Positions 6,542 through 46,289 of a stretch of 55,696 nucleotides of DNA are shown here, piece by piece. The translations under genes and the position numbers were made by a program. The DNA comes from Rickettsiales bacterium (GTDB taxonomy: Bacteria; Pseudomonadota; Alphaproteobacteria; Rs-D84): NCBI GenBank assembly GCA_031265235.1, contig JAISCX010000013.1, forward strand, positions 1-55,696, in the 5' to 3' direction. Positions within the stretch are counted from its first letter, which is position 1, and each line of letters starts with the position of its first letter. The notes under the pieces were generated by a model. The model saw nothing but the letters and a program-made list of their open reading frames with translations. It did no database searches and was not told where the DNA came from.

Positions 6542-7375
6542 ATGCAAAATATACCGAGAATTTATCTGAATGAAAATCTGGAATTAGGAAAGGAATATCC
6601 TTTGCCGCCGGATACGGCGCATTATCTGACAAAGGTGATGCGTGTTTCGGCTTTGCCGAAACAGGACATGGATTTTTCTGTGTTTAATAATGGAAAAGAG
6701 TTCGGCGCAAAATTAATAGAAAGGACAGATGGCAAAAAATCTGTCTGCTATGCCTTGCTGACCGTTGGTTCTGACAGAATTGATCCGGCGGGCGCATTCT
6801 GTCTGGCGTTTGCGCCGATAAAGCAGTCGCGATTGGAAGAAATGCTGAATATGGCGACGCAATTGGGCGTTGCGCGTTTTCAACCGGTTATAACCGAACG
6901 GACGGTTGCCCGGCATATAAAATGGGAAAGGATTCAAAAAATCGCGATAGAGGCGTCCGAACAATCGGGCCGGAATTCAATTCCGTCCATTCTGCCGGAA
7001 ATAAAATTCGCGGACTTTATTAAAAATAACAAAAATATAATTTTTGCGGACGAGCGATTCGCGCATGATGATGTGTCATTCCGGACGCCGCAAAGCGGCG
7101 GTCCGGGATCTGGTCAGGATCAGGGAATAGAAAATATTTCCGATAGAAAAAACATTTGTAATTCCCAGCCCCACCAGATCCCGGATAATTTTGCGCAGAG
7201 CGCGCAAAATTTCCGGGATGACACAATCATTCTCATCGGGCCAGAGGGGGGATTTTCGGACAAAGAATTCGAATTGCTGGATGTCGCCGGCGCCGCTGGC
7301 ATTTCTTTGGGACGAACAATACTGCGCGCTGAAACCGCCGCAGTCGTTGCGATAGGAAAAATAGATAGCAGATAG
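6542..7375 (+). CDS. rsmE: 16S rRNA (uracil1498-N3)-methyltransferase RsmE carrying a ~51-codon in-frame insertion
   Basis: N-terminus IPRIYL and C-terminal LIGPEGGFSDKE..GRTILRAETA motifs. It is 277 aa against a typical length of about 240. Confidence 0.85.
   Translation: MQNIPRIYLNENLELGKEYPLPPDTAHYLTKVMRVSALPKQDMDFSVFNNGKEFGAKLIERTDGKKSVCYALLTVGSDRIDPAGAFCLAFAPIKQSRLEEMLNMATQLGVARFQPVITERTVARHIKWERIQKIAIEASEQSGRNSIPSILPEIKFADFIKNNKNIIFADERFAHDDVSFRTPQSGGPGSGQDQGIENISDRKNICNSQPHQIPDNFAQSAQNFRDDTIILIGPEGGFSDKEFELLDVAGAAGISLGRTILRAETAAVVAIGKIDSR
7072..7225. mobile_element. MITE-like palindromic element, copy A, in frame inside rsmE
   Basis: Termini TGTGTCATTCCGG ... CCGGGATGACACA, with internal inverted repeats CCGGGATCTGGT / ACCAGATCCCGG. 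It is homologous in reverse orientation to 49838..49970. Confidence 0.7.
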
Positions 7376-7475
7376 TAGATACTAGATATTAGATATAAGT
7401 TCACAGTTTGCCTGACTATGATTTCTAGATTCTGACCAATATTCTGCCAGTCGCAGATTAATATCTACTATCTAC
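7361..7475. repeat. AGATAGN-heptamer palindromic element overlapping the rsmE stop
   Basis: Left arm AGATAGC AGATAGT AGATACT AGATATT AGATATA; right arm GATTAATATCTACTATCTAC. Confidence 0.6.
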
Positions 7476-7609
7476 AAAATCGCGCATGCACGCGATTTTG
7501 TTTGACTTTTCCCGATTCGTGCGCCATAATGCGTCCGTTCTTAGAAATAAATTTCCAAGGGCGGGACTGAGAAGTCCCGCTCTTTAAGTATAAACAAGGA
7601 GCCTTTAAA

Positions 7610-9181
7610 ATGTCATTTGAATCCATGCCGCGCCAAGACTTGCTGCTGGCCATTGATAATCTGGCCGCGGAAAAACAGATTGCCCGCGATATTGTAATTG
7701 AAAGCCTGGAAGCGGCCATCGTCCGCATCGCGCGCAGCAAATACGGCGAAGAATTTAATATAACGGCCGAAATTTCGCGCAAGAACGGCGCGATTCATGT
7801 CCGCCGTCTGTTTGACGTTGTGGATCCTGACGCGCTTGGGATGGACGAAGAAGGCGAGCCGATCGAATTCAACCAAAGCACAATGATTACGGTTGCCGGC
7901 GCAAAGAAATACGCGAAAGATCCCAAAGTCGGCGATATCGTGGAAGACCCGCTGCCGGAACCGGAATTCGGCCGCATGGCGTTCCAGACCGCGCGCCAGA
8001 TTATGACCGCCCGTGTGCGCGACGCTGAAAAAGGACGCCAGTTTGAAGAATTCAAAGACAGCATCGGCGACATAGTGAACGGAATTGTCCGCCGCATCGA
8101 ATTCGGCAATGTCTTTGTGGATATCAACGGCAAAGCGGAAGGCTATATCAAAAGCACCGAACTGATTCCGGGCGAAAAGTTGCAGCCGGGCGACCGCGTC
8201 CGCGCCCTTATTATGGACGTTTCGCGCTCGAACAGCGGCCCGCAGATATTCCTGACCAGAACACATCCGATGTTTATGGAAAAGCTGTTCATCCAGGAAG
8301 TGCCCGAAATTTACGAAGGCATCATCAAAATCAAATCCGTCGCCCGCGCGCCGGGCAGCCATGCCAAGATCGCGGTCCAAACAGACGACCCCAGCATTGA
8401 CGCCGTCGGCATGACGGTCGGCATCAAGGGAACGCGCATCCAGCCGGTAGTGAACGAATGCCATGGTGAAAAGATTGACGTGATACTCTATTCCGAAGAT
8501 CCGGCGGTATTTATCGTCAACGCGATGCAGCCGGCGAAAGTCGCGAAAATTATCGTAGACGAAGACACCCACACGGCGGCCGTGATTGTGAACGAAGACC
8601 AGCAGTCTTTGGCCATCGGCCGGCGCGGGCAGAACGTCCGTCTGGCTTCGCAGCTGACGGGATGGAATATCGACGTTATGAACGAAGCGGAAGAACAGGA
8701 AAAACGCGCCCGCGAATTCAAAGAAAAGACCGAATTGTTTACCAAGGGATTGGATGTCGATGAAATGGTGGCGCAGCTGCTGATCACCGACGGATTCCGC
8801 ACGATTGAAGAAATCGCGTTTGTGGAATTATCTGAACTTGCCGGCATCGAAGGGTTTGATATGGAACTGGCGACCGAATTGCAGGGCCGCGCCCGCGCAT
8901 ATCTGGACAAGCAGGATCAGGAATACAAAGACAAGGGCCGCGCGATGGGAATGAAAGACGATCTTTTGTCGTTTGACTTTATAAAGCGCGATACGATTCT
9001 TGCGCTCGGCGCCGCCGGAATTCGTTCTTTGGAAGACCTGGCCGATCTGGCGGGCGATGAATTGATCGAAATTCTTGGACAGGACAATATGTCCGAACGC
9101 CTTGCCGGCCGCGTAGTCATGAAGGCGCGCGAATTGGCGTATGGAATCGGGGAAGAAGATGAAGAAAGTGTAGAAGTGTAG
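7610..9181 (+). CDS. nusA: Transcription termination/antitermination factor NusA
   Basis: LLLAIDNLAAEKQI start, S1 and KH regions (IGRRGQNVRLASQLTGW), acidic C-terminal repeats. Confidence 0.95.
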   Translation: MSFESMPRQDLLLAIDNLAAEKQIARDIVIESLEAAIVRIARSKYGEEFNITAEISRKNGAIHVRRLFDVVDPDALGMDEEGEPIEFNQSTMITVAGAKKYAKDPKVGDIVEDPLPEPEFGRMAFQTARQIMTARVRDAEKGRQFEEFKDSIGDIVNGIVRRIEFGNVFVDINGKAEGYIKSTELIPGEKLQPGDRVRALIMDVSRSNSGPQIFLTRTHPMFMEKLFIQEVPEIYEGIIKIKSVARAPGSHAKIAVQTDDPSIDAVGMTVGIKGTRIQPVVNECHGEKIDVILYSEDPAVFIVNAMQPAKVAKIIVDEDTHTAAVIVNEDQQSLAIGRRGQNVRLASQLTGWNIDVMNEAEEQEKRAREFKEKTELFTKGLDVDEMVAQLLITDGFRTIEEIAFVELSELAGIEGFDMELATELQGRARAYLDKQDQEYKDKGRAMGMKDDLLSFDFIKRDTILALGAAGIRSLEDLADLAGDELIEILGQDNMSERLAGRVVMKARELAYGIGEEDEESVEV

Positions 9182-9283
9182 TCGCAAAATCGTAAAACGA
9201 TTTTGCTAAGTGTAAATAGTGTAAAAAATTAACTGAATACTTTTACACTTTTTACACTCTTACACTATACACTAATTTGCGAC
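9181..9283. repeat. GTGTAAA-unit palindromic element in the nusA-infB spacer
   Basis: Outer arms GTCGCAAA / TTTGCGAC, inner hairpin GCAAAATCG..CGATTTTGC, arms AGTGTAAATAGTGTAAAAAA / TTTTACACTTTTTACACTCTTACACTATACACT. Confidence 0.65.
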
Positions 9284-9298: not shown

Positions 9299-11680
9299 AT
9301 GGCTACATTGACACTTAAAAAATCCGTCGATACCGGCGCGGTGCAGAGCGCCAAGGGTGCGACCATATCCGTGGAACGTCGCCGCAAAATCATGCTGCCC
9401 GGCGAGCGGACACTGCGAGACGAGCCAAAGTCCCCTGTGAAAAGTTCTGCCGCGGACGAAAAGCTTCGCGCAGTGCTGGAAGCTGCGAAAGAGCGCGAAT
9501 TGGTGCGAAAACAACAGGCAGAGGATGAAGACCGTCTGCGCATGAAGCGGGACGAACAGATCGCCGCGGAAAAAGAAGCGTATGAGCATACCAAGGAGCA
9601 GCTGCGCGCGCGCGAGGCGGCAATGGCGGAAACAGAACCCGATACGGATCATGCCGCGATTGGCGCGCCCAGGCCGACGTATGGTTCGTCCAGGGTTTCC
9701 GGGTCGGATGACGATGACGCCAAGGGGCACAAGGCGAAAGGGAAAAATACCGCGAAAAGCGCAAAAGATTTCGGCAAGGGCAAGATATCGATCCGCGACA
9801 TTGTAATGTCAGGCGACGAAGACGGCGACGAATCGATCGGCATCCGCGGCGGCGCCCACAGACGATCAGAAGCGTCGCTGAAACGTTTCCGGGACAAGGC
9901 CCGCGCAATGTTCAAGCCCACGGAAAAAATAGCGCGCGAAGTTTCGATCGGAGAAACCGTCACCGTAAAGGACTTGGCGTCCCAGCTTTCCGAAAAGGTA
10001 GGCGTTGTTATCAAAAAACTGATGGAAATGGGAATGATCGTGTCGCAAAACCAATCTTTGGACGCCGACACCGCGGAATTGGTCGCGACGGAATTCAGCG
10101 CGACCGTGCGCCGCGTCGTCACTGTGCCATATGACGCAGAGCTGAACCGCGCGCCCAATCCGGAACACTTGCTGCCGCGCGCGCCGGTTGTCACTGTTGT
10201 CGGCCATGTCGATCATGGAAAGACATCGCTGCTTGACGCTTTCCGCAACGCCAATGTTGTCGCGGGCGAAGCGGGCGGAATAACCCAGCATATCGCCGCG
10301 TATGAAGTGGAATCCAAATCCGGCAAGATGATAACATTCCTTGACACCCCGGGGCACGAAACATTTTCAGCCATGCGCGCCCGCGGCGCGCAGATGGCCG
10401 ACATCGTGGTTCTGGTCGTCGCCGCGAATGATTCGATCATGCCGCAGACGATAGAGGCCATCAATCATATCCGCGCAGCCAAGGTTCCGTTCATTATCGC
10501 CATTAATAAAATAGATCTGCCCGAAGCCGATCCCACAAAAGTCAAAACCGATTTGTTGCAGCATGAAATACAGATTGAAGAAATGGGCGGCGATGTTCAG
10601 GCCGTAGAGATTTCCGCAACCAAGAAAATCAATCTGGACAAATTAGAAGACGCGATTCTGTTGCAGGCAGAGCTTATGGATTTAAAGGCGGACCCTGATA
10701 TGCCGGCCCAAGGATCTGTCGTAGAGGCCCGGCAAGAAAAAGGATTGGGCGCAACGGCGACGACACTGATTCGCACCGGAACGCTGAAAATCGGCGATAT
10801 ATTCGTTGTGGGCGAAACATGGGGACGCGCGCGGGGACTTATCAATTCCGTTGGAATGCGCGTCAAGTCCGTGGGTCCCGGCCAGCCTGTGATAATATTG
10901 GGCCTTGAAACGGTGCCTTTGGCCGGCGACGAGCTGCGCGGACTGGAATCAGAAGCCCAGGCCCGCGAAGTCGTCAGCTATCGCGTCCACAGATCGAAAG
11001 AAAGCGCGAATATTGTAAAACGTTCGTCTTTGGAAGATCTGTTCGCAAAGCGGGACGAAACCAAGAAATTAATGCTGCCGGTCGTTCTTCGCGCGGATGT
11101 CCAAGGATCGGTCGAAGCAATCCGCGACATGATTAAAAAGATTGATTCCGACAAGGCGGGCATCGATGTCCTGTTGTCCGGCGTGGGCCAAATTACCGAA
11201 GGCGACGTGCGGCTGGCGGCGGCAAGCAACGCGGTTATAATCGCGTTCAATGTCCGCGCGGATGCGGTGACGCGGGAACTGGCCAGATCCATTGGCGTTG
11301 AAATCCGCTATCATTCAATCGTATACCGCATAACGGACGAGTTAAAGGATATGCTGACCGGAAAGCTTGCGCCGGAACGCCGCGAAAACTTTATCGGATA
11401 CGCCGACGTAATCGCGATATTCACGGTAGGCAAGGGCGTCAAAGTCGCCGGCTGCCGCGTTACCGAAGGCGTCGTAAAGAAAGACGCGTTTGTCCGGCTG
11501 TTGCGCGAAAACGTTGTTATTTACGACGGCAAGATCGGAATGCTGAAACGCGAAAAGAACGAAGTAAAGGAAGTCGGCACAGGCACCGAATTCGGAATGT
11601 CGTTCGACAAATACAACGACCTGCGCGAAGGCGACCGGGTGGAATGTTACGAGGTTGAAAATATCAAAGCAACGTTGTAA
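9299..11680 (+). CDS. infB: Translation initiation factor IF-2
   Basis: GGAG RBS, GTPase motifs [13 protein letters not shown] / DTPGH / NKID, 793 aa. Confidence 0.95.
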
Positions 11681-12176: not shown

Positions 12177-12259
12177 GATTGGATTATATGCCAGGTATCT
12201 TCAAAAGACAAGTGCAAATAATCATTTGCCCGTATAGGTTTTTATTATATAATCCCTGT

Positions 12260-13516
12260 ATGAAAAAATTTCCGGTTTATGTCCTTTGCCCTGTGATCTT
12301 TCTTTCCGCGTGTTCCACCATGGGGAATCGGCTGGATGCTGCGCGCGATGGTTTCGCGTCAGGCGATTATTCAAACAAAAAAATCGGCGATGATAATCTG
12401 GATCCGCTTCTTGCCGGAAACGCATTGTTCCAGCAAAACAAATTCAAAGAATCGGACGCCGCGTTCGAAGACATAAACAAACGGATGTCTGACGCCCAAA
12501 GCGCGTCGGTCGCGGGCGAGGTCGGCAAAGCATTAAGCAGCCAGATGGCGGGCAATTACAAGCCGTTCTTTATGGACGACCTGTTCGTGTCTTATTATCA
12601 AATTTGGGATGCGCTGGCGGACGGACGTGATAAAGACGCGCGGGTGATAGTCAACCAGTCATATGCAAAGCAACAGAAATTGTCCAAAGAATTCGCGTCA
12701 TTGATATCAAGACGCGAAACCGGCGGCAATGGTCTGGGCGCGAAGCTGCGGTCTGAAAATTCGGGATGGGAATCGTATCGCGATATAATGAATCCGGCGC
12801 TGACGTATCTGTCCGGATTGTATTTCTTGAACTTTGCCGCCGGGGCAAGCGATTTTGAAACAGCGCGGACGTATCTGTCGCGGGCAAGCGGCATGATGCC
12901 GGATAATGATTACATAAAATCCGACCTGGCCGCTGCTGTGTCCGGTAAAAAGCCGGGCGGCATGGCATGGATATTTATTGAATCCGGGTTCGCGCCAAAG
13001 CTGGACGAACGGCGTATAGATTGGCCGGTCATCGGCGCAAACGGCGTGACAAGCGTATCCGTCGCCGTGTCGGAACCGGTAATGTTTGTTGATATGCCGA
13101 CCCCGGACGGCGCGAGGTTATTGGCCGACGTCGATGCGATGTTCATGACGGAATTCAAGGAATACAGTGTGAACGACGCATTGCGCGCACTGGCCGGCGT
13201 GGCGGCCAAGACCGCGGTTCAGGCGGTTGCGAATAACCAGCTGGGGCCATGGGGGGGATTTGGCGCGATGATATATTCGATCGCCAGCACCGGTGCAGAG
13301 ATCAGGACATGGGCGACGCTGCCGAAAAAAATATATCTGATGCGCATTGATAAAACGGCAAATAGCAAAGAGCGAACAGAAAATAATGAAGAATTGATTT
13401 TGTTAAAAATTAATGGTAACGTCGTATCTGAAATAAAGGTTCCGGTTACCGGCAATGACTTGATATACATCAGACTGCTGAATGGCAAAATTGAACCGAA
13501 AATTATAAGAATTTGA
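12260..13516 (+). CDS. Lipoprotein of unknown function (resembles the COG3014-type partners of LpoB-like lipoproteins)
   Basis: Start moved to MKKFPVYVLCPVIFLSAC (lipobox LSAC). The upstream track start lies in the sRNA promoter region. 418 aa. Confidence 0.8.
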   Translation: MKKFPVYVLCPVIFLSACSTMGNRLDAARDGFASGDYSNKKIGDDNLDPLLAGNALFQQNKFKESDAAFEDINKRMSDAQSASVAGEVGKALSSQMAGNYKPFFMDDLFVSYYQIWDALADGRDKDARVIVNQSYAKQQKLSKEFASLISRRETGGNGLGAKLRSENSGWESYRDIMNPALTYLSGLYFLNFAAGASDFETARTYLSRASGMMPDNDYIKSDLAAAVSGKKPGGMAWIFIESGFAPKLDERRIDWPVIGANGVTSVSVAVSEPVMFVDMPTPDGARLLADVDAMFMTEFKEYSVNDALRALAGVAAKTAVQAVANNQLGPWGGFGAMIYSIASTGAEIRTWATLPKKIYLMRIDKTANSKERTENNEELILLKINGNVVSEIKVPVTGNDLIYIRLLNGKIEPKIIRI

Positions 13517-13561: not shown

Positions 13562-14320
13562 ATGCCCATGAAAAAAATTACATTATGCCTTGTGCCTTAT
13601 GCCTTGTGCCTTGCGCTTTGCGCATGCGGCGGAACCAAGGTTGTTGACTTGGAAGATCAGGACGAGGTCGCGGAAATGACCGACGTGATGGAACTGGAAT
13701 ACCGCGACTGGACCAAGACCGCGGAAAAAATGACGAATTCCATGCTGAAATCCGGCGCATTTGCAGAGATCAAAAAGCCCGTCATCGCCATGGGTCCCAT
13801 GACCAACGACACCTTGCAGCGGTTTGACACCGACATTATGACCAAAAAGATCCGCACGACGTTGGTCAATTCCGGCCGCGCCCAGATTGCGACAAGCTTT
13901 CAGAACAAGACCGTGTCGGCGACGGGATATGTCCCTGTAAAGGCGGAATTGAACGCGATGTCCGCAAACGGCAAGAATACGTCCACAATAAAGGCCAAGG
14001 CCGAAGGATACGCCGCGGTTGAATATGAAAAGCCGGCCAGCGAAGACGACACCACGCACCAGGTGCGCGCCCAGCGCGGCAACGCGGAATACGACGCCGG
14101 CACGGTCGCGGACAAGGGAACCTTGGTCGCGCCGAACATGTCGCTGTCGGGCAAGATGATGCAAAGAAATCTTGGATTGGAAACATGCTGGCTGTGTGCA
14201 AAGAAAGAGCGCGTGGAATATTACCTGCAACTGACGCTGACGGATGTCCGGTCCGGGCTGTCGGTTTGGGAAGACGAACAGCCGATTATCAAGGAAGGCA
14301 AAAACGCCCCAAAATGGTAA
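13562..14320 (+). CDS. LpoB-like (COG3417-type) lipoprotein
   Basis: Lipobox LALCAC|GG, DW..TAEKMTNSML and MGPMTNDT motifs, C-terminal YYLQLTLTDVRSG. The signal peptide is encoded by a TGCCTTG heptamer tract. Confidence 0.75.
   Translation: MPMKKITLCLVPYALCLALCACGGTKVVDLEDQDEVAEMTDVMELEYRDWTKTAEKMTNSMLKSGAFAEIKKPVIAMGPMTNDTLQRFDTDIMTKKIRTTLVNSGRAQIATSFQNKTVSATGYVPVKAELNAMSANGKNTSTIKAKAEGYAAVEYEKPASEDDTTHQVRAQRGNAEYDAGTVADKGTLVAPNMSLSGKMMQRNLGLETCWLCAKKERVEYYLQLTLTDVRSGLSVWEDEQPIIKEGKNAPKW
13586..13623. repeat. Solo TGCCTTG heptamer tract encoding a lipoprotein signal peptide
   Basis: TGCCTTG TGCCTTA TGCCTTG TGCCTTG CGCTTTG CGC translates to LCLVPYALCLALCA. Confidence 0.7.
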
Positions 14321-14468: not shown

Positions 14469-15305
14469 ATGATTAATAATTCCGCTGTGAAAAAATTAAT
14501 TGCGGCTTTTCTATTCCTATCATTTCCTGCATTTGCGGAAATTGAACCGATGGATAAAGTCGTATTTCCAAATCCTATGGATACCGTTCAGACCAAAGAA
14601 CGCGATCTGGTTCCGCCGTCGCAACCGCGTCTGGACAAGGCCGAAAGGACTTACATATCCGGCGCATTGCTGGCTGGCGTGGTTCAGATGCCCGGCTGGG
14701 CCGAAGATACGGTCATAAACGGCGCGATGTTGAACGGAGACAGAGAAACGCTGGCCGGAATGACGCCGGTGTTTTTCAATGTGAATGTTGGATACAATTT
14801 CAGCCGCTGGGGCGCGCTTTTCTTCGGCGGAACATTCGCGGCGCCTGTTGAAAACAAACCGTGGGCCAAAGAAGCGGGCGGCCCGCAACTCGTTTGGGGC
14901 GAAGTTTGCCCGCTTCCCGGCGTTTGCTATCCGGGATATACTGTTATCCATCCTGAAAATTATGATTTAACGGTCCGGTCCAGCTATTACGAAATATTCG
15001 CGGGAACCCGATTCAATATCGGCGATGCGTCAGGTTCTGTCGGTATGTTCGGCATGTTCGGGTTACAGTTCGACTGGTATGTTGATTTGGGAATTTCTTA
15101 TAATAATCTGACGCTGGAATATTCCGGAGATTTGTCCGCGCGCGAAAATTTTTCCGGCGTGTCCCCGCTTTTCGGCACGGGTTTTGAAATAAGTTTTCCG
15201 GAATCCCAGACAGTATTTGACATCGGGCTTCGCATGACCGGCATTGGCGGGGATAATGTTTCCGGCACCGCTGGGGTAAGCATGGGATTCAAAAGATATT
15301 TTTAA
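14469..15305 (+). CDS. Outer-membrane beta-barrel protein
   Basis: Signal peptide FLFLSFPAFA, alternating Gly/aromatic strands, C-terminal ...GFKRYF. Confidence 0.8.
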   Translation: MINNSAVKKLIAAFLFLSFPAFAEIEPMDKVVFPNPMDTVQTKERDLVPPSQPRLDKAERTYISGALLAGVVQMPGWAEDTVINGAMLNGDRETLAGMTPVFFNVNVGYNFSRWGALFFGGTFAAPVENKPWAKEAGGPQLVWGEVCPLPGVCYPGYTVIHPENYDLTVRSSYYEIFAGTRFNIGDASGSVGMFGMFGLQFDWYVDLGISYNNLTLEYSGDLSARENFSGVSPLFGTGFEISFPESQTVFDIGLRMTGIGGDNVSGTAGVSMGFKRYF

Positions 15306-19531: not shown

Positions 19532-19645
19532 GCGCAAACAGTTCGGATTGCAGGGCCAGCTATATTTATTCTATCAAAAACTGCTTGCACTAATACTTGC
19601 GCTTGCCCCCTTTTTATGATAAAATTATCAGAAGAAATCCATATC

Positions 19646-22861: not shown

Positions 22862-22883
22862 TGCGCGTGGCGCGGTAAATTAT

Positions 22884-22911: not shown

Positions 22912-22934
22912 TGTTAAACAAATATTATTCTGAC

Positions 22935-36175: not shown

Positions 36176-36176
36176 G

Positions 36177-36245
36177 TTGTGATTTGTAATCTGTGATTTG
36201 TGATTTGTGGGTTCAAGTCACAGGTCACAAATCACAGATCACGAC
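36177..36245. repeat. GTGATTT-heptamer palindromic element, copy 2
   Basis: GTGATTTGTAATCTGTGATTTGTGATTTGTGGGTTCAAGTCACAGGTCACAAATCACAGATCACGAC, about 80% identical to copy 3. Confidence 0.8.
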
Positions 36246-37700: not shown

Positions 37701-37717
37701 AATAAATCCTGGGGCGG

Positions 37718-38227: not shown

Positions 38228-38333
38228 AGTGTTTGGTGGCTCGCGCTGGTGGTGCTGATAGGGTAAATATATAGCATATTTATGAATAAATCAAATATTT
38301 CATACAGTAAAATAATGCCGCCGCAATCACGGT

Positions 38334-39692
38334 CTATTCCAAGTTCAGCTGATTGTATTTCATGCGGACGCGCGTTTCCATGTCCGACAGGGCGTTCATA
38401 AAATCGGACACGGTCGCGTTCGTATTTGCCGCGACGGCGGACATTATTTTTTCGGATTCTGTTTTTTTTACGGACGACTCGTTCTTGACCGCGGAAACCA
38501 TCATCCCCGAAAGCGAAGGAAAGGACATATCCTGCATTACCGCGACGCTATCAGCAAGGTCCCAATACAGATCGGCGTTTGCGGAATCTTCGATGCGGTC
38601 GCGCACGGACAGACGCGGCGTCACCGAACCCGCGAATCCGACGCTGACGAACAGCGCGGATATGCGCCCGCCGGTCATGTCCAAAGTTTGATTGACGGAA
38701 AGTGTCGCAAGCTTTCCGTCCGCAGGCAGCGATATTCCGGATAACGACAAATCCCCGGCCCACATCTCTCTGGCGTTCACGCCGGCAAACCGCGCGGTTT
38801 GACTGACCGTTATTTTGTCGGCTTTCAAAGCCCTGGAATCGGACGACAGCGCGCCATTCACGATCGTATCCCCGGATACTGTTATTTTCCCATCCAGCGT
38901 CGGTCTGTTTTCAATCGCTGCGCGGTCGGCCGATATGTTGTCCGTGTTCATGAATTCCGAAAAGTTTGCCGTTTCCGCCGCCAAAGTCCGCGCGTTTACA
39001 ATATTGTGCCCGCCAAGCGACAAATCGCTTGCCATTGTTGCGTCAAGCGCGTTGTCCGTCGCCACCCTTTTTATAAATTCATCCCCTGCGCGCGACACCG
39101 GCGTCATATCCAGCACGGCATTGTTTGAAAAATTGGCGTTCCATATATGGACGTTCTGCGTCCAGGTGCCGAATGCGCCGTATGCCTTTAATCCTTCGGC
39201 AAAGCCTGCGGCTTCGCCCGATAATTCCGCCACTTCGCGTGTGCGCAGCGCCGACATGTCGCTGTTTTCCATGATTACGATGCCTTGCAGAAACGACCGT
39301 CCGGCGCGGTCAGCGGTCTTTATAACGCGCAGCTGATATTTTTCGGATTTGTTTATCGCGTCAATGCCCAGCCCATATTCGGCAAGATCCGAAATGGATA
39401 CGCGCTTGACATTTCTGGTGATCGTCGCGGTCATCGCCGCTTTCTTGTCTTCGATGTATCGTTCCAGCGCGGATTTTACCAACGCCATGTCGCGTGCGAT
39501 TCTGATGTTTTCCGCGCGGCGGACCCGGGCCGTTTCCGTCCGCAGTAAAAACGGCAGCATGGCGGCCGCCAGCGAAAGCGCCAGCAAAAATTCCACCATC
39601 ATGCCGCCATGCTGCGCACGCGCCGCGCCGCGGCGAGAGAAGACGGAAAAGGAAAGAGAGAAGAAAGATTTATTCAATCGGTGCCCCCGCAA
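38334..39692 (-). CDS. Large prepilin-like protein C
   Basis: N-terminus ..AQHG|GMMVEFLLALSLAAAMLPF, repeat-rich C-terminal half. The TTG start at 39692 overlaps gene B by 23 nt; the alternative ATG at 39602 would leave no leader. Confidence 0.7.
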   Translation of the reverse strand: MRGHRLNKSFFSLSFSVFSRRGAARAQHGGMMVEFLLALSLAAAMLPFLLRTETARVRRAENIRIARDMALVKSALERYIEDKKAAMTATITRNVKRVSISDLAEYGLGIDAINKSEKYQLRVIKTADRAGRSFLQGIVIMENSDMSALRTREVAELSGEAAGFAEGLKAYGAFGTWTQNVHIWNANFSNNAVLDMTPVSRAGDEFIKRVATDNALDATMASDLSLGGHNIVNARTLAAETANFSEFMNTDNISADRAAIENRPTLDGKITVSGDTIVNGALSSDSRALKADKITVSQTARFAGVNAREMWAGDLSLSGISLPADGKLATLSVNQTLDMTGGRISALFVSVGFAGSVTPRLSVRDRIEDSANADLYWDLADSVAVMQDMSFPSLSGMMVSAVKNESSVKKTESEKIMSAVAANTNATVSDFMNALSDMETRVRMKYNQLNLE

Positions 39693-40995
39693 TTTTGGTT
39701 TTCAGGCTTTTCCATCCGCTGCCCAGAATCTTGTTGTATTCCGTTTCGTTAATCGCTGTCTTGTTTAAAACATCCCCCCCGGATTTTTTCAAGACCAGTG
39801 CGGAAAATCTTGGGTTTGAAGACGACGGGAAACTCCAATTGCCAAGTTTCAAGGGGCCGGAAGAATATCCGCCGGCCAGTTCGCTGGATATGGTGATACC
39901 GAAACCGTTTGCAAAATGCATTTGATCCGCAGAGATGAACGGCACGGACGCGGAATATGCCGAAATTACGGAAAACCCGGATACCGTCCGCGCGGACGTT
40001 GTCCGCAGGGTCAGGTTCCGGCCCACATGCACCGCGTCCGCGATGCTGGCCCTGTCTGCGATCATGTTACCCTGCGACGACCAGTTTGACGAAATGCCCG
40101 CGCCTTCAAACCTGTTCGTTTCAATATTGCGGAACCCGAGAACATCGCCGGAAACTTTTAAATAATTGAACATCGCATCGGACGGGTCAATGTTCGCGCC
40201 GTTTGGAAAAACAGCATCAGCTGCGTCAAAGATATCCGCGTTCGCAAACCATGCGGCCGCCATTTTTGAATCAAGGGACAACGAATGCAGCGCATCTATG
40301 TCAACAAGATTGCGTCGGCCCATGTTCAAGTCGCGTTCCATCGTGTTCAGCCTGTCGTCGTCCAGCTTCATCCTGTGCAGATAAAGACCCGCGGCATCGT
40401 CGGATATTGTGGTCGACACGCGGTATACGATGTCGTGTTGAAGAAAGCTTTCCGATTCGATGCTGAATCCGCCGGCGACGGAATATGCGACGCCGAACTC
40501 GTTCACGATGGCGGCGTCGGTTCCCAGATTTTTTGCGATTTTCGCGATGCGGATTTCCGACATCGTGCCCCCGCGGAATATCAGGTAAGAATCGATCGTC
40601 GTGCCTGCCTTGTGCTTGTATTTATCAAGAAACGCGGCATATGGAATCAAATTTCCCTTTCCTTCTTCCCCAAGTATTTTATACATTTCATCCTGATCAA
40701 GATCCACCTCGGCGTCTTGCGGCCAGTCGGCCTGGTTTTTTCGCACGTATCCAGCGATTCTGTCTTTCCATAAAACAATTTCCTTGGCGGCCGTTATGTC
40801 TTGTATCTCGCGGCTTGTTTCCGCAATACGGTTGTAAACAAAAGGCGTCATCAAAGCGACAAGGCCGATGGCGAGAAGCGTTTCCAATAGATTGCTGCCA
40901 CGTTCGCAGTGGGAACGGGATACTGGATACGCGCAAAAAAATGCAACGAACTTTCGCATCTTGTCCCTCGCATTTCGTCTTTCGTATTTCAGCAT
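39670..40995 (-). CDS. Large prepilin-like protein B
   Basis: ATG at 40995 overlaps the gene A stop (ATGCTGA), with a purine-rich RBS. N-terminus ..CERG|SNLLETLLAIGLVALMTPF. Confidence 0.75.
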   Translation of the reverse strand: MLKYERRNARDKMRKFVAFFCAYPVSRSHCERGSNLLETLLAIGLVALMTPFVYNRIAETSREIQDITAAKEIVLWKDRIAGYVRKNQADWPQDAEVDLDQDEMYKILGEEGKGNLIPYAAFLDKYKHKAGTTIDSYLIFRGGTMSEIRIAKIAKNLGTDAAIVNEFGVAYSVAGGFSIESESFLQHDIVYRVSTTISDDAAGLYLHRMKLDDDRLNTMERDLNMGRRNLVDIDALHSLSLDSKMAAAWFANADIFDAADAVFPNGANIDPSDAMFNYLKVSGDVLGFRNIETNRFEGAGISSNWSSQGNMIADRASIADAVHVGRNLTLRTTSARTVSGFSVISAYSASVPFISADQMHFANGFGITISSELAGGYSSGPLKLGNWSFPSSSNPRFSALVLKKSGGDVLNKTAINETEYNKILGSGWKSLKTKIAGAPIE

Positions 40996-42452
40996 CCGCC
41001 CTTTCCTTCCAACATGCATTTTTTCAAATCTATCCTGCGTTCCAGTCTTTGCCAGAATACATACCGGCAAACGATGTTTTGCGATAATGATTTTTGATTG
41101 TATGCAACGCCGCCGGTCAGCGCGCCGATGATATTCCGGCACCCGGTCACCGCGCCGGAATCGTCGTCGATTTGTGATGGAATCCCGATCGCGTTGTTGT
41201 CTATGCCGTCAATGGTGATGTCCGGCAGAACGGACACCCCCCCAAGGCGCAAGTCGATCAAAACCGGTCCGGTGCCGCCATTTAAAAGACCGCTTGACGT
41301 CTGGTCGCGCAGCGTCAGATTTGCGGCAGAGACAACGTTCGCTTCTATCCCGCTTTTAGAGGCATAGGTCAAATCGTATTCGTTTATGAAAACATCCTGG
41401 CCGCGGCTGGCGTTTATAAATCCGCTGACTTCCAATTGTTCTGCATCCAGTGTCACGTTTTCCAATACGGCGTTGCCTTTGACTTCCCATTTGGCGGGGC
41501 CGTTGAATCCGGTTCTGCCGGCCGCCATTGAAAAGTCATATACGGACAGCGTGTCCGCGGTCAGATTTCCCGCGTCCCCGTATTTTGATATCGAAGACGA
41601 CGACAGGTTTCCCGCGTTTAAAATTCCCTTGGTGACGTTCATGGAATCGCCGAAAACGGCGCGCCGGATATTGAACGCCCCGAATCTGTTTCGCATTTTT
41701 TTCCCGTCTTCCATCCCGGATAATCTGATGTCGCCTGCAAGGATTGTTTTGAAATTCCCTTCGCGCGCAGAGATGTCGTTTATTCCCTTTATATCGTATC
41801 CCCCCATGATCAGGTCTGTATGGAACTTGTTGTCTTCTGTATTTTTCGATCTTTTTGCGACCAGTTCCGACAGTTCGCGAAATGCCGGAACGCGGACATA
41901 GATAGTGTTTTTGTCCGGACGCCAGCCGAATTCTTCGGTTCTTATTTCCCAACCGCCGGTGGCGCCGCGTAGGATTTTTTCATCCGCATCGAATTCTGCC
42001 GCCCAAAAGCCGATGCGGACGGCAAGTTCCGCCATGGCGGCGGCGCTTGTCTTTGGGTCGGATATGCCGATGAATGACAGCGTCTCGGATTCGCTTTTAA
42101 CGGTCGTCATAAAGATATTTTGCCCGAAAGGTGTCTTTGGAACAAACCCCAGCGAAAGCCCGTAAGATTCCAGCGCGTCCGTAAATTTGTCGTCTTTGAA
42201 TATTGCGACCCCGTATGGCATCCGGTCGGCATTGTCGCGGATGAATTCGCGCGCGGCGCCCGCCGCCGCTTCGATCTGGGCGGTTGTGGCCGCCATTCTG
42301 GATGCGAATTCATTGCCGGATATTTTGCGGACAAGAAAAGGCATGAACGCGATGACAAGTGCCAGCGCCAGCAAGGCTTGGAGCATGAAATTACCACGCT
42401 TGGCGCGCGCGTCGTGATAAGCGATGCGTGATAAGTGATACATGAGATGCAA
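40989..42452 (-). CDS. Large prepilin-like protein A
   Basis: AGGAGG lies 6 nt before the TTG at 42452 (first ATG at 42443). N-terminus ..AKRG|NFMLQALLALALVIAFMPF. Confidence 0.75.
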   Translation of the reverse strand: MHLMYHLSRIAYHDARAKRGNFMLQALLALALVIAFMPFLVRKISGNEFASRMAATTAQIEAAAGAAREFIRDNADRMPYGVAIFKDDKFTDALESYGLSLGFVPKTPFGQNIFMTTVKSESETLSFIGISDPKTSAAAMAELAVRIGFWAAEFDADEKILRGATGGWEIRTEEFGWRPDKNTIYVRVPAFRELSELVAKRSKNTEDNKFHTDLIMGGYDIKGINDISAREGNFKTILAGDIRLSGMEDGKKMRNRFGAFNIRRAVFGDSMNVTKGILNAGNLSSSSISKYGDAGNLTADTLSVYDFSMAAGRTGFNGPAKWEVKGNAVLENVTLDAEQLEVSGFINASRGQDVFINEYDLTYASKSGIEANVVSAANLTLRDQTSSGLLNGGTGPVLIDLRLGGVSVLPDITIDGIDNNAIGIPSQIDDDSGAVTGCRNIIGALTGGVAYNQKSLSQNIVCRYVFWQRLERRIDLKKCMLEGKGGC

Positions 42453-42897: not shown

Positions 42898-42987
42898 AAA
42901 AGTGCAAGTGTCAGCGCAAATAGTTCGGATTATTGGGCGGGTTGTGTAATTCTATCCGAACCAACTTGCGCTTGCACTTGCACTTTT
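42898..42987. repeat. GTGCAA-unit palindromic element
   Basis: AAAAGTGCAAGTGTCAGCGCAAATAGTTCGGAT ... ATCCGAACCAACTTGCGCTTGCACTTGCACTTTT. It shares AGCGCAAAYAGTTCGGATT with 19531..19606. Confidence 0.7.
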
Positions 42988-43007: not shown

Positions 43008-44102
43008 ATGAAAATCCTTGACCGTTATTTTACGCGCCAGCTGGCGATGTTCTCTGTAATGCTGCTGCTGGTTTTATCCGGCCTGGCATGGATGATGCAG
43101 ATACTTTCCATGCTGAAGTTTCTGATTCAATACGGAATCGATCTTTGGGGTTTTCTGGGGCTGACCGTTTTAATGCTGCCTTTTATAATTTCCATAATAT
43201 TGCCGTTCGCCATATTTATCACGGTAATGTTCGTATATAACAGAATGATAGCAGATCAGGAAATTGCCGCCATGGCGGCCAGCGGCCTGTCCCCTATGCA
43301 GCTGGCGCGGCCGGCGATAACATTGGCCGGGATTCTGGCGGTCGCGCATCTTGTTCTGAACATTTGGATCGTGCCTGCGACGCAGGTAAGGTTTTTTGAT
43401 AAACAGTGGGAAATGCGCTATGGGCTTGCGCACTTGAAGCTTCAAGAATCAACGTTCACCCAGATGTCCAAGGGGCTTGTAGTTTTTGTGGAAAAAGTCA
43501 AAAGCCATGATTTGTTCGGCCTGATGCTTTTTGATGCGCGCAACAAAGCGTCCGAAATGACAATTTCCGCGGGGGTTGGAAAAATGGTAAACACCGACCG
43601 GGGGCTGTCCATGGTCATGACGAACGGCAGCATTCAATATCGCGACAGTGGATTTATCATCGGAACGTTCGATTCGTTTGACATGGATATGAACGTGTCG
43701 GACAAGGGCAATGACACAAAGTTCAGGGCCCGTCGCACCCCGACCTTGGAATTAATATCTGTCGTCCGATCCGGGTGGAATTTGGACGCAAAAGGATACA
43801 AGGACGCAATATCGGAACTGGCGACCCGGTTTCTTGGGCCGCTGATGGGGGTCATATTGGTTTTGATCGGCATGGCTGTCCTGTTAAAGTCGTCGCTTTT
43901 GCGCAGATCAGGATTCAACATGGCTTCCCCTGCGGCCGTTGTCCTTATCGCCGCGGCCCAGACCTTGTTCATGATGCTGTTGGATATGATTGTCGGAATC
44001 CGCGGATTGTTTGCGCTCTGCGGGCTGCAGATTGCCGCGATAATTATTTTACTATTTGTCCTGATGGGAAAAAGAGAAAAGGGCAGAGAGAAAAGAGAAT
44101 AA
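43008..44102 (+). CDS. LPS export permease, LptF/LptG family
   Basis: Start moved to MKILDRYFTRQL. Six TM helices plus a periplasmic domain, directly upstream of lptD. Confidence 0.88.
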   Translation: MKILDRYFTRQLAMFSVMLLLVLSGLAWMMQILSMLKFLIQYGIDLWGFLGLTVLMLPFIISIILPFAIFITVMFVYNRMIADQEIAAMAASGLSPMQLARPAITLAGILAVAHLVLNIWIVPATQVRFFDKQWEMRYGLAHLKLQESTFTQMSKGLVVFVEKVKSHDLFGLMLFDARNKASEMTISAGVGKMVNTDRGLSMVMTNGSIQYRDSGFIIGTFDSFDMDMNVSDKGNDTKFRARRTPTLELISVVRSGWNLDAKGYKDAISELATRFLGPLMGVILVLIGMAVLLKSSLLRRSGFNMASPAAVVLIAAAQTLFMMLLDMIVGIRGLFALCGLQIAAIIILLFVLMGKREKGREKRE

Positions 44103-44186
44103 GGAATGCAGGGACAATTCCGCTGTTTTTCCGGGACCGTTTATGCCGCATTTGTTTTTGCGCTGTTGTTTCCCCTTTCCCTCTTT
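44066..44186. repeat. Purine/pyrimidine heptamer palindrome spanning the lptF/G stop and the lptD signal peptide
   Basis: GGGAAAAAGAGAAAAGGGCAGAGAGAAAAGAGA encodes GKREKGREKRE-stop. TTTCCCCTTTCCCTCTTT encodes LFPLSLF. Confidence 0.5.
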
Positions 44187-46181
44187 GCCGCGACCATCGA
44201 TCAGAACGGGCCAAAGGCGGTCATCGCGGATAAAATAGAATATAATGTGCGTGACAAATCAATAAAGACGGCCGGAAATACAGAGGTTTGGACAAAATCG
44301 GGACAAAGGATGACCCTTGCTGATGCATACGTTGACGAAGGCGGCGTAATCGCATATGGAACGTCCGCCGAGATATTTCTGAATTCCAAAACGCGGATCC
44401 GGGCCGCCGAGATTGTAAAATCCGGTGATGTCACCACGGCGGAAAGAATAACGTATACCGCATGCCACAGCTGCGAAACAAAAGTGAACGCGTGGGAGAT
44501 TTCAGCCGCGCGCCTGAAACACGACAACGAAACCCATTACATGCATTTTGAAAATCCTGTATTCCGTACTTATGGCATTCCGGTCTTTTGGTTTCCTTAC
44601 ATGACTTATCCGGATCCGACCATACGTCATAAAAGTGGTTTGTTGTTGCCATATATCAATTCAACAAACAATATGGGGACGCAGATTAACATTCCGCTGT
44701 ATATCGCTGTTTCCGATACGCACGATTTTACATTTACCGCGTCGTACTTGACGGCCGAAAATCCGTTGTGGCAGTTAGAGCACAGGCTGAACGCGAATCG
44801 TTCCAGATTCAGAACCGCCGGTTCTTTCACCAGTAATCAGGAAGGCTTGAACCGCTGGCATATGTTCAATGACGACGAGATAGAGCTGGGGACACATGCG
44901 CGGGCAGAGATTTTCTTTCAACGCACTTCTGACAAGACGTATTTGCAAAAATACGGGTTTTATGACGCCCAGCCGTATCTTGATTCCGGTGGCCGCGTCG
45001 AGTTGTTTGCAGAATCCGGATATGTTTCGACAGAGGTTCATTTTTTTCAGGAATTGCGCGCCTTTTCCAGCAAATACAGCAATTATGGAAATCTGACCGA
45101 CCCGTCTGGTGATATTCTGCCGAATATTCATGGCGTTTTCCAGACCATGCCGCTGTTCGCAGACACATACATGTCGTTCATGGGCGATATGATAGGCATT
45201 AATAATTCGGATACGGGATCCGCGACGCAGCGTATGCTGGGCGCGGCCGTTATAACGTCGCCTTGGACACTATTTTGGGGACAAAAACTGTCCTTGTCCG
45301 GATCGGTGCGGTATGACGTTTATAATTTCATCAATACGGATCTTCTCGACGGCACGAATAATTGGACGGGCATAAAAAACCGCTTTCTGCCAAGCGGATA
45401 CGCCGAATGGTCATGGGCGCTGGTCAACAGGCAAAATAACTGGACCCATGTATTGGAACCGCGTATTCGCGTGACAACCATGGGACAGGTAAAAACGCCG
45501 GCGTTTGCAAATATTGATTCTTCGGGAACGATACTGTCCGACGCGACGCTGTTTTCCGGCAATCGGTTTTCAGGATATGACTTGTGGGAAAACGGGACTT
45601 ACACGGATTATGGTTTAAGCCTGTTCTCGTATTACGGCAGCAATGTCGCCCTGAACGGATTCTTTGGGCAGTCTTATGATTTTTCCCCGCCTATTGATCT
45701 GGACCCGAATTCAGGATTCCATGATGGCTTTTCGGATTATGTCGGGCGCGTCGGCGTGGAATATGACGGCTGGATTTCGCTGAATAACCGATTCCGGTTC
45801 GCGGAAAATAACCTCGGCCTGCGTCATTTGGAAACAGTTGCAAAAATCGGCGCCAGGAATTATATTGAAGGAGGATATATAATCGCGGCGCAACTGCTGG
45901 ACGCGGATACGGTGGACAAGAACATAAGCGAGATTGTCGCCGGATTCGGGATTAATCTGACCGATCGTTTTTCAGCGCGAATCCGCACCATATACAATAT
46001 AACGGATATGCGGATTCAGCGGCAGAATGCAGGAATATATTACGATCATCCGTGTTATACGGTCGCATTCGAATATAACAAGGATGGCGCCGTTCGCGAA
46101 AACCTTGCCGTCGGCGAAAACTATCGTGGAAACACTACATTCAATCTTACGTTTAGTCTGAAGCTGACGGAGACTAAGTGA
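44106..46181 (+). CDS. lptD: LPS-assembly protein LptD
   Basis: OstA-like N-terminal domain and large beta-barrel, 691 aa, conserved lptG-lptD-surA order. Confidence 0.9.
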   Translation: MQGQFRCFSGTVYAAFVFALLFPLSLFAATIDQNGPKAVIADKIEYNVRDKSIKTAGNTEVWTKSGQRMTLADAYVDEGGVIAYGTSAEIFLNSKTRIRAAEIVKSGDVTTAERITYTACHSCETKVNAWEISAARLKHDNETHYMHFENPVFRTYGIPVFWFPYMTYPDPTIRHKSGLLLPYINSTNNMGTQINIPLYIAVSDTHDFTFTASYLTAENPLWQLEHRLNANRSRFRTAGSFTSNQEGLNRWHMFNDDEIELGTHARAEIFFQRTSDKTYLQKYGFYDAQPYLDSGGRVELFAESGYVSTEVHFFQELRAFSSKYSNYGNLTDPSGDILPNIHGVFQTMPLFADTYMSFMGDMIGINNSDTGSATQRMLGAAVITSPWTLFWGQKLSLSGSVRYDVYNFINTDLLDGTNNWTGIKNRFLPSGYAEWSWALVNRQNNWTHVLEPRIRVTTMGQVKTPAFANIDSSGTILSDATLFSGNRFSGYDLWENGTYTDYGLSLFSYYGSNVALNGFFGQSYDFSPPIDLDPNSGFHDGFSDYVGRVGVEYDGWISLNNRFRFAENNLGLRHLETVAKIGARNYIEGGYIIAAQLLDADTVDKNISEIVAGFGINLTDRFSARIRTIYNITDMRIQRQNAGIYYDHPCYTVAFEYNKDGAVRENLAVGENYRGNTTFNLTFSLKLTETK

Positions 46182-46289
46182 AAGAGTGAAAAAAGTGAAA
46201 ACAGTTATCAAACAAAGGAATTTTATTATGAAAAAATTATTAATATTTTCGTTCACTCTTTCACTCTTTCACTTTTTCACTTTTTCACT
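46179..46289. repeat. GTGAAAR-unit palindrome spanning the lptD stop and the SurA-like signal peptide
   Basis: Left arm GTGAAAGAGTGAAAAAAGTGAAAAC. Right arm GTTCACTCTTTCACTCTTTCACTTTTTCACTTTTTCAC encodes FTLSLFHFFTFSL. Confidence 0.75.

Follow-up and report, generated by a model that had tools for sequence, protein, structure and literature searches.

A 55.7-kb stretch of DNA from a Rickettsiales bacterium (assembly GCA_031265235.1, contig JAISCX010000013.1, positions 1 to 55,696; hereafter the window) carries, among chromosomal housekeeping genes and at 50% G+C, a series of palindromic elements in which a tandem array of a short unit, most often a heptamer, is followed by a spacer and then by an array of the complementary unit. 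Among public sequencing runs, the window is found in one alone, a termite-gut metagenome (the source run, X1), and the best named relatives of its Der protein, at 64-75% identity, are uncultured Alphaproteobacteria, “Rickettsiales bacterium” metagenome-assembled genomes, and Candidatus Enterousia. The genes that border or contain the main elements are as follows:

4236-6428, traG/virD4 homologue, adjoining and divergent from rsmE (6542-7375)
7610-9181, nusA
9299-11680, infB
15302-16693, minus strand, der/engA
43009-44102, lptF/G
44106-46181, lptD
46229-47079, surA-like gene

The window further encodes recF-like, bamB-like, and rpoH-like genes, sspB, accBC, a MacAB-TolC-like pump, a porin, two rlu genes, rlmN, pnp, two tRNAs, and the initial 1.1 kb of a 16S rRNA gene. 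An Rfam search of the window matched only the 16S rRNA and the two tRNAs and returned no family for the palindromes. The repeat elements are listed below with their folding z scores against shuffled sequence (folded segment in parentheses):

6434-6540, GTGATTT-family palindrome (arms 6434-6472 and 6509-6540) filling the divergent traG/rsmE spacer; its AT-rich 36-nt spacer holds a promoter-like site (6473-6500), and both arms run up to start codons as G-poor (CAAAUCA)n leaders that lack a Shine-Dalgarno (SD) sequence; z = -9.6 (6432-6542)
7362-7475, AGATAGN palindrome (5' arm 7362-7396, containing the rsmE stop codon; 3' arm 7459-7475), upstream of the nusA terminator (7474-7501) and promoter (7502-7530)
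9183-9206, plain hairpin preceding the next element and separate from it
9209-9266, GTGTAAA/TTTACAC palindrome in the nusA-infB spacer; z = -4.7 (9205-9270)
13586-13613, plus strand, (TGCCTTG)4 array encoding the signal peptide of the lipoprotein LpoB
16092-16131, minus strand, perfect 19+19 palindrome in der, adjoining the next element
16130-16196, minus strand, GGGAAGA/TCTTCCC palindrome in the der linker between the two GTPase domains, encoding GKREKRKG...PSSLFPLP; z = -9.0 for the pair (16092-16196)
16525-16561, minus strand, unpaired (GTGATTT)5 array in the variable G2-G3 loop of der, encoding KSQITNHESQITI
19528-19612, second, degenerate copy of the GTGCAA element, between sspB and a 1081-aa gene
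33167-33203, plus strand, (CGTGTTT)5 array encoding the porin signal peptide
34025-34053, plus strand, (CACGRTT)4 array in the porin coding region, near its C-terminal end (relative position 0.86)
36177-36242, GTGATTT-family palindrome filling the spacer between two minus-strand pseudouridine synthase genes, with the upstream stop codon in its 5' arm and its 3' arm abutting the downstream ATG; z = -8.7 (36176-36243)
40968-40990, minus strand, unpaired heptamer array (sense AAATACG/AAAGACG) between the stop and start of two uncharacterised co-directional genes
42414-42440, minus strand, unpaired (GTGATAA)n array at the N-terminus of an uncharacterised gene
42898-42987, GTGCAA/TTGCAC palindrome of a dispersed family upstream of lptF/G, with a non-repeat inner stem AGTTCGGAT/ATCCGAAC; z = -7.9 (same segment)
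44070-44186, plus strand, purine-rich and pyrimidine-rich tracts in the LptF/G C-terminus and the LptD signal peptide; z = -0.2
46176-46290, plus strand, GTGAAAR/YTTTCAC palindrome with the lptD stop codon in its 5' arm, the surA ribosome-binding site and ATG (46229) within its loop, and a 3' arm that encodes the SurA signal peptide; z = -5.2 (same segment)
47079-47138, GTGATTT-family palindrome lying after the surA stop codon and before the rlmN ATG; z = -5.9 (47076-47140)
54319-54380, GTGATTT-family palindrome, upstream of the 16S rRNA gene by about 200 nt; z = -6.9 (54319-54381)

Reality, placement and polarity of the arrays

Arrays were scored with Tandem Repeats Finder (period 6-9, at least 2.8 copies) against a null of 50 dinucleotide shuffles. 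The window held 21 such arrays, compared with a shuffle mean of 0.48 and a maximum of 2; period 7 accounted for 16 of the 21, and at least 12 unit types were represented. Inverted array pairs numbered 3 under strict scoring and 9 by a sensitive partner search (within 100 nt), and 0 in the shuffles, with about half of the arrays forming such pairs. Arrays are imperfect (70-100% matches), the arms of the palindromes are 74-94% complementary in extended alignment with perfect sub-stems of 11-21 bp, and eight palindromes fold far better than their shuffles (z of -4.7 to -9.6). All of the tracts named in a first-pass annotation of this DNA are present where it placed them, and its central observation, that many units share one design, is borne out below. 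Several of its particulars needed revision. The tracts at 44066-44186, which it took for a two-armed palindrome, fold like shuffles; the hairpin at 7361-7476 has a 12-bp perfect stem and an ortholog in a relative but is modest (z = -2.3); and the one-armed tracts at 13586, 33168, and 34026 exist but are coding sequence (two signal peptides and a porin interior). The units, which it described as unrelated, are not all so: 8 of the 12 unit types of the window have a GTG core, and the units of the whole clade have a strong strand asymmetry in common (A141 G111 T97 C36).

The same annotation had named assembly artefacts of low-complexity reads as a possible undoing of its observations. Independent Logan contigs of the source run, however, reproduce the arrays of the window base for base, and three assemblies that carry the der gene of one relative (L002) match one another at 100% identity along a 16.7-kb stretch that contains 16 arrays. 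Because these independent contigs and assemblies agree, the arrays are not assembly artefacts. There were no indel variants at the arrays among the contigs, on which, rather than on reads, all population and copy-number comparisons were made.

About half of the arrays lie in the intergenic DNA that makes up some 10% of the sequence, and the rest are found at gene starts and edges, in linkers, and in signal peptides. Paired elements sit in divergent or co-directional spacers; the stop codon of the upstream gene often lies in the 5' arm, and the 3' arm often runs up to the ATG of the downstream gene. Elements fill spacers from upstream stop to downstream start codon. They also occupy tolerant coding segments (der, signal peptides, and rsmE), and palindromes of the same design are found in coding regions of der, recF, and udg. 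The expectation that every element lies at a gene boundary therefore fails for the palindrome at 16130-16196, which sits in the inter-domain linker of der/engA. A frameshift at the 40968 array, considered because of overlapping open reading frames (ORFs; 39670-42452), was rejected; these are separate genes, with the array between stop and start codon. The signal peptides of LpoB, the porin, the SurA-like protein, and a 452-aa protein are encoded by pyrimidine-rich or GT-rich short tandem repeats (39640-39690, 13586-13613, 33167-33203, and 46252-46290), which give hydrophobic cores with a 7-residue periodicity, for example, FSFTLSLFHFFTFSL; in one relative (L016), an array of the similar unit TGCCTTA lies in an N-terminal signal-peptide-like sequence. 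The 16S rRNA gene (54585-55696) is cut by the contig end, and the GTGATTT palindrome upstream of it would lie in the presumed rrn leader.

The paired elements obey a rule of polarity: the G-rich arm is 5' and the C-rich arm 3' in 32 of 34 (p = 7e-8), the two exceptions being long-range pairs at rsmE. This chirality holds for palindromes within coding regions and for 11 of the 12 (GTGATTT)n palindromes found in unrelated metagenomes, and it is absent from the ordinary hairpins of the window. The units themselves are strand-asymmetric, C making up 9% of the G-rich strand. That the 5' arm has stop codons in every reading frame fails as the cause for ATTTACG, GGGAAGA, GTGCAA, and TGGTCGT, and start-codon adjacency fails as the sole cause because coding-region palindromes are G-first too. 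The stop-codon, start-codon, and Rho-avoidance accounts each fit part of the cases, and the rule is unexplained. Relevant to accounts based on Rho, at least part of the clade has this factor, since one contig (L212) carries rho; a gene for a transposase associated with repetitive extragenic palindromic sequences (REPs), that is, a REP-associated tyrosine transposase (RAYT), lies immediately downstream of it (4697-6606).

Clade distribution, dispersal and change in place

For comparison, a clade sample of nine loci (177 kb) was assembled from termite-gut or array-rich genomes as der loci of relatives: the window, L001, L002, L005, L016, L027, and L207 to L209, of which L207 is the closest relative. 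Period 7 accounted for 90 of the 118 arrays in this sample (period 6, n = 9; period 8, n = 9; period 9, n = 3). In contrast, 21 vertebrate-gut loci of Enterousia type (409 kb) yielded 11 period-7 arrays and no preference for this period, making these relatives about 19 times poorer, while most other Alphaproteobacteria and outgroups were near background for arrays of period 6-9, few of which had period 7. All nine clade loci have the architecture of the window built from other units, such as ATTTACG, GATGGAT, GAGAGTT, TGGTCGT, AGTGACAA, GGTGGCT, TAGATAC, AAGGAAC, and TAAGAAT, and the sample has 55 distinct units in total; an 8-base unit in L208, AGTGATAA, is related to the GTGATAA of the window. 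Many units sharing one design, rather than a single mobile sequence, is thus a lineage-wide pattern of tandem unit, spacer, and complementary unit. The heptamer trait is old, because the termite-gut genomes are only 69-75% identical to one another in Der. Two simpler markers of the clade were rejected: a GTG core is present in 17 of 55 units where 10.7 are expected (p = 0.04), which is weak, and more than 120 contigs, drawn from many habitats, contain (GTGATTT)3. Heavy enrichment, heptamer specificity, a multi-copy state, and persistence at orthologous sites at about 70% protein identity together mark these families, which typify a clade of Enterousia-related Alphaproteobacteria from termite guts.

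The multi-copy state was evident for most units of the window. In the source run, the depth on GTGATTT arrays is about 10-fold, corresponding to about 10 copies. For AGATAGN, a 1.5-kb contig of similar depth has the element including its loop (98 nt, 5 differences), for at least 2-3 copies; GTGCAA has at least three, namely, the two in the window, which have AGCGCAAAYAGTTCGGATT and ACTTGCGCTTGC in common, and a further one in another contig of similar depth. The TTCACTYT array that forms the 3' arm of the 46176-46290 element is found at one or more further loci in X1, giving at least two copies, and the GGGAAGA palindrome is the only single-copy one in this run. The arms at 36177 and 47079 have a common order of variants, GTGATTT-GTAATCT-GTGATTT-GTGA. 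Across genomes, 11 of the 55 distinct units are common to at least two; TAGATAC palindromes lie upstream of nusA in the window and L005 but between recF and sspB in L207, where the interior of the element has AATATATTGGACAA in common with the L005 loop. Multi-copy units and their recurrence across genomes are the signature of dispersed families. The same L207 interior (7756-7831) holds a perfect 20-bp palindrome, TTGTCCAATATATTGGACAA, and a degenerate second copy of it; the palindrome looks like an operator, and one half of it recurs in the L005 element.

Elements also change in place, and der provides the clearest case. An array in the linker of this gene was found in eight clade genomes, no two of which have the same unit (GGGAAGA, CAAAGTG, AGAGTTT, TGCAGAG, TGGAGTG, CCAGCCA, CTAAACC, and CCATCAT); array-free relatives have a shorter linker. 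The linker loop GATAAT is kept in three of the eight genomes despite different arms. L001 and L016 have homologous 3' arms in which all units differ at the same unit position, a pattern that indicates concerted evolution of these arms. In the adjoining palindrome of the window (16092-16131), one arm consists of the conserved LRIAIMG codons that form the invariant start of G-domain 2, and the other is their inverted copy within the variable linker, where it encodes HDCNSQ. The der stems are perfect Watson-Crick helices of 19 bp in the window, 12 bp in L001, and 13 bp in L002, with no G·U pair or mismatch, and each fits the synonymous codons of its own genome (e.g., ATC GCG ATT CTT in L002); the constrained arm comprises LRIAIMG/KIAILG codons throughout, and the free arm is its inverted copy. 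Shorter inverted repeats in der of L207 (7 bp) and L016 (5-8 bp) are weak and not significant alone. Because one of its arms is conserved coding sequence, the 16092-16131 palindrome must be local in origin, and the der palindromes have the form expected of template-switch products, in which one arm would have been copied from the other.

A second case of arms changing together was found at rsmE. In both L005 and L016, the rsmE coding region holds an array complementary to one in the leader, 160-270 nt away, and the two co-vary between the genomes (AGTTCTT/AAGAACT in L005 versus AGTTGTY/RACAACT in L016), with one TAACAAC unit of the L016 type retained in L005. The neighborhood is noteworthy in other respects. 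The traG/virD4-type coupling-protein gene is kept divergent from rsmE in three genomes (the window, L005 1-2797, and L016 123-870), a chromosomal conservation unusual for a conjugation gene, and the spacer between the two genes holds heptamer arrays in all three, with a different unit in each. Within rsmE of the window (7103-7225), there is an in-frame insertion of about 30 aa with a 13-bp hairpin (7102-7114/7173-7185) that relatives lack. At least four further copies of the insertion, 85-95% identical, were found in similar-depth contigs of the source run; it resembles the Rickettsia palindromic elements (RPEs) in being a repeat inside coding sequence and stands apart from the heptamer families.

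Around nusA, the same site could be followed across three genomes. The AGATAGN element upstream of this gene is orthologous to L005 21129-21277, with the same unit and identical flanks (terminator, promoter, and hairpin of the 5' untranslated region [5'-UTR]), yet the units per arm number 5/2 in the window versus 3/5 in L005, and the loops are unalignable. L002 has the same layout built from GGTGGTT/GGTGCTG. The nusA-infB spacer contains GTGTAAA in the window, GTGCTC/CACGAG in L002 (also read as TCGTGC/CACGAG), and no element in L005, and the flank TTTGCGACGAAGGAGCAAAT is kept. The variation in unit number that the first-pass annotation had proposed to test is seen between orthologs of the window and L005 but not among the three identical contigs of L002. 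The region between the element and nusA is itself kept in these three genomes, which are about 70% identical in Der (window 7474-7609, L005 20995-21110, and L002 20128-20300): a terminator hairpin with compensatory changes is followed by a promoter (-35/-10, TTGACT-17-CATAAT), a 5'-UTR hairpin (GGGCGGGAC..GTCCCGCTC), and AAGGAG. The 5'-UTR hairpin might act as a leader in the autoregulation of NusA; in the window, nusA has no rimP ahead of it.

Pairing was also compared between strands. Over the 21 elements with known sense strand, predicted G·U pairs numbered 51 in sense and 51 in antisense, and the ddG was of mixed sign, neither strand folding consistently better. Because the der stems are perfect and codon-matched, the rsmE arrays co-vary, and there is no sense-strand bias in G·U pairs, we infer from this small sample that complementarity is maintained in DNA and not by selection on an RNA fold.

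Beyond the arrays, nine sizeable ORFs of the window (162-811 aa) have no Pfam match (287-4136, 12179-13516, 37212-42452, and 48431-49075). Three of them are adjacent and of 452-490 aa, and the nine probably encode lineage-specific envelope or secreted proteins.

Candidate explanations

The explanation that we favor, with confidence no better than moderate, is that these are several dispersed families of short, non-coding, heptamer-armed palindromes, distributed like REP doublets (REPINs) or MITEs (miniature inverted-repeat transposable elements) and composed like short tandemly repeated repetitive sequences (STRRs), that evolve by slippage and arm-to-arm templating. New loci would be seeded by a copying or transposition step, and an element, once at a site, would evolve in place. 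Replication slippage would alter unit number and spread unit variants along an arm, and intramolecular template switching between the inverted arms (quasipalindrome correction) would copy changes from arm to arm; through such copying, drift or replacement of the unit sequence would leave the arms complementary. As secondary consequences on this reading, the G-poor arm would act as an unstructured, SD-less leader for traG, rsmE, rluX, and rlmN, and complete hairpins between cistrons may gate or couple translation.

Several points weigh against this explanation. No transposase, target-site duplication, or pair of empty and filled sites was found for the heptamer elements, and the RAYT genes of the clade are flanked by different, GTAG-type REPs. 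The spacers between arms are mostly unconserved. The extra X1 contigs on which copy numbers depend were assigned to the genome of the window by similar depth only, and slippage and template switching would be read from contigs rather than observed directly. Exact TAGATAC is conserved between the window and L005 although the loop is unalignable, which could reflect a sequence-specific function rather than neutral turnover. Finally, the model predicts neither the strict G-first chirality nor the preference for period 7.

A possible, if rather doubtful, alternative is a DNA-level and largely sequence-independent activity of the clade that builds tandem heptamers, makes inverted duplicates of them with a fixed polarity (the G-rich arm 5'), and keeps the arms complementary over evolutionary time. 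Such an activity may act even where one arm is conserved coding sequence, as in der, or lies 150-270 nt away, and it could reflect some peculiarity of replisome or repair, or else a structure-directed enzyme. If this were true, a single generator would have produced the families with different units one after another, and they would not be separate mobile elements.

It seems unlikely that the elements are functional RNA hairpins under selection, acting in intercistronic processing or stability, as gates or couplers of translation, or as unconventional terminators. The position of elements exactly between stop and start codon in co-directional gene pairs, the very stable stems, and the conservation of the position upstream of nusA in three genomes speak for such a role, as does the relation of some arms to translation starts: traG (6428), rsmE (6542), rluX (36175), and rlmN (47146) have homology-verified starts directly after a G-free (CAAAUCA)n with no SD sequence, whereas nusA, infB, lptD, surA, and accB have AGGA/GGAG. 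The strand comparison argues otherwise, since the 21 elements lack the strand-specific pairing, G·U pairs included, that a structured RNA would have. Moreover, no tandem-arm palindrome fits the pattern of an intrinsic (Rho-independent) terminator, as the plain hairpin at 7474-7501 does, and no paired element lies at the five convergent gene ends of the window; the two of these ends examined have a plain terminator (4181-4227) and a GTAG REP (22884-22911). The same design also occurs in coding regions (der, recF, and udg) and in divergent spacers, whose arms are not co-transcribed. Promoters in the loops were rejected as a general rule, as there is one plausible site (6473-6500) and most loops, at 4-16 nt, are too short. 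RNA runs that share words with the end of the 16S rRNA gene of the window belong to other organisms.

Binding of the arrays by DNA-binding proteins, either unit-specific regulators or nucleoid proteins, is also improbable. Complementarity at the DNA level, the exact TAGATAC unit kept between the window and L005 while the loop diverged, a RAATCAC unit common to several genomes, and the location of elements upstream of genes, including in promoter regions, would all suit such sites, and there is a precedent, itself a hypothesis, in the paired sites of Geobacter metallireducens (PMC2700814). Still, 55 distinct units in about 177 kb would call for more specific proteins than is plausible, units that follow one another every 7 bp leave too little room for each to bind its own protein, one site has different units in different genomes, and arrays lie inside essential coding regions.

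That all elements were generated purely locally, with slippage expanding a 6-9-mer, a fold-back or template switch making the complementary arm, and no movement between loci, is hard to credit. The first-pass annotation had suggested local generation by slippage and template switching, and the arm-templating traces in der and rsmE and the differing unit numbers between orthologs lend support to these processes; the der palindrome with an arm of conserved coding sequence, the single-copy GGGAAGA palindrome, and the different units found at one orthologous site in different genomes would even suit a purely local origin. However, most units are multi-copy, including GTGATTT, AGATAGN together with its loop, GTGCAA together with its non-repeat inner stem, and TTCACTYT, and identical units and shared internal sequence occur at different loci in different genomes; repeated independent origin of one heptamer is implausible.

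Equally hard to sustain is the idea that the elements are REPINs mobilized by the RAYT of the clade, a Y1/HUH enzyme that recognizes hairpins, with heptamer palindromes as alternative substrates. The window has no transposase. L207 encodes a RAYT of 208 aa (3190-3883, syntenic with window 22862-22934) that scores 31 bits against Pfam Y1_Tnp, above the cut-off, and 70.7 bits against NCBIfam REP_Tyr_transpos, below the cut-off of 80; the protein has HUH and YY motifs, and JGI names homologues RayT. Further homologues were found in three other heptamer-rich termite-gut contigs (L210 to L212). An enzyme of the kind that the first-pass annotation proposed to look for is thus present in the closest relative and in three clade contigs, with HUH motifs intact, and GTAG-type REPs and heptamer palindromes are both G-first. 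All four genes, though, are flanked by classical GTAG-type REPs (GTAGGGGCG...CGCCCCTAC) and none by heptamer arrays, so that the RAYT, tied to these REPs, was rejected as the mobilizer. Copies of the REP lie inside the RAYT gene in L207, L210, and L211, the three that were scanned, and in L207 in frame. The window contains a single GTAG REP hairpin (22884-22911, ATAGGGGCGGTTC..GAACCGCCCCTAT), which separates the 1081-aa gene from accC and occupies the position syntenic with the RAYT of L207; in L001, there are five GTAG-type REP pairs in 15 kb. The heptamer elements of the window have no conserved flank motif, GTAG-like or other. They are, as REPs and REPINs are, short imperfect palindromes in many dispersed copies, but no cognate RAYT flanked by the same repeats was found in the window, L207, or L210 to L212. 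They have terminal inverted repeats, as MITEs do, but no direct repeats flank them, and no transposase with such ends was found in the window or the fetched loci. For lack of the GTAG motif, a cognate transposase, and target duplications, the heptamer palindromes are not members of the REP/RAYT or MITE groups.

Least credible of all is that the arrays are assembly artefacts or contingency (phase-variation) loci: the Logan assembly does break at some arrays (7277-7438 and 46281), and some arrays lie in signal-peptide codons of envelope proteins, like the CTCTT repeats of Neisseria opa, but the agreement between independent assemblies and among the three samples of the relative contradicts the former, and the latter sits less easily with imperfect arrays, which are poor slippage substrates, with their in-frame position in essential housekeeping genes (der, surA, and lptD), and with the conservation of many between genomes.

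Known systems and significance

An excess of heptamer simple sequence repeats in bacteria, the STRRs of heterocystous cyanobacteria, and the GGGAATC repeats of Xanthomonas are documented and unexplained (PMC4692102). Like the cyanobacterial heptamers, the elements described here are tandem 7-base units of several types per genome, mainly non-coding, in many copies, and with a strong preference for period 7 over 6, 8, or 9; unlike them, about half are inverted pairs with G-first chirality, essential coding regions are occupied too, the host is a termite-gut alphaproteobacterium, and the units are others. In Xanthomonas, GGGAATC arrays of about four units are mostly intergenic, and a subset are convergent inverted pairs able to form stem-loops (PMC4692102). 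There, a single unit family that forms G-quadruplexes is involved and inversion is the exception, whereas here at least 12 unit types occur in 56 kb and 55 in the clade, most of them incapable of forming G-quadruplexes, and the inverted arrangement is the rule. Closer in design are sites in G. metallireducens, with three or four classes of 3-5 tandem 7-9-mers (GTTGCTYN, TCTCCGTS[Y], and MTYCTGA) in opposite-strand pairs at variable distance and tens of copies, with insertion sequences at a fixed distance and, speculatively, binding by IHF/HU or a regulator (PMC2700814). One design is likewise built from different units within one genome, but no insertion sequence accompanies the elements here, and coding copies and a chirality rule were not described there.

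The nearest mobile counterparts are REPINs (PMC3116915) and RPEs (reviewed in PMC10969869). REPs and REPINs with their RAYTs resemble the heptamer elements as multi-copy extragenic palindromes in hairpin doublets with G-first chirality, in that orthologous spacers hold different elements in different genomes, and in the presence of RAYT genes in the clade. They differ in that the heptamer elements have tandem-heptamer arms without a conserved GTAG and form many families rather than one per RAYT. RPEs are families of 100-150 bp with conserved sequence and are not tandem heptamers. The likeness lies in an alphaproteobacterial host and in palindromic repeats inserted in frame into coding genes, where they add peptides to variable regions; such insertions are found here in the der loop and linker and in rsmE (7103-7225). 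In contrast to RPEs, one coding site here has eight units in eight genomes.

Template switching at quasipalindromes, by which one arm is copied from the other and imperfect inverted repeats are made perfect, is established in Escherichia coli (PMC7202029). The mechanism fits the perfect, G·U-free, and codon-matched palindromes of der. It is known as a mutational hotspot in laboratory reporters and is not known as a long-term shaper of dozens of genomic elements. New here are the many families of one design, the coding copies with turnover of units, the co-varying arms tied to conserved codons, and the chirality rule; the placement of the G-rich arm 5' was previously unremarked, and any mechanism must account for it.

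In practical terms, the elements break short-read assemblies and add peptide segments to Der, RsmE, and signal peptides, and the SD-less starts of some genes matter for the annotation of these uncultured symbionts. Heptamer repeats and REP-like palindromes are among the commonest unexplained features of bacterial genomes, and the termite-gut clade is an unusually clean natural experiment on them, with dozens of unit families, about 19 times the abundance seen in sister lineages, at least nine genomes in which orthologous sites can be compared, and copies in essential genes whose protein constraint holds one arm fixed. It makes testable why the period is 7 and whether the palindromes are kept by structural selection or by templated mutation.

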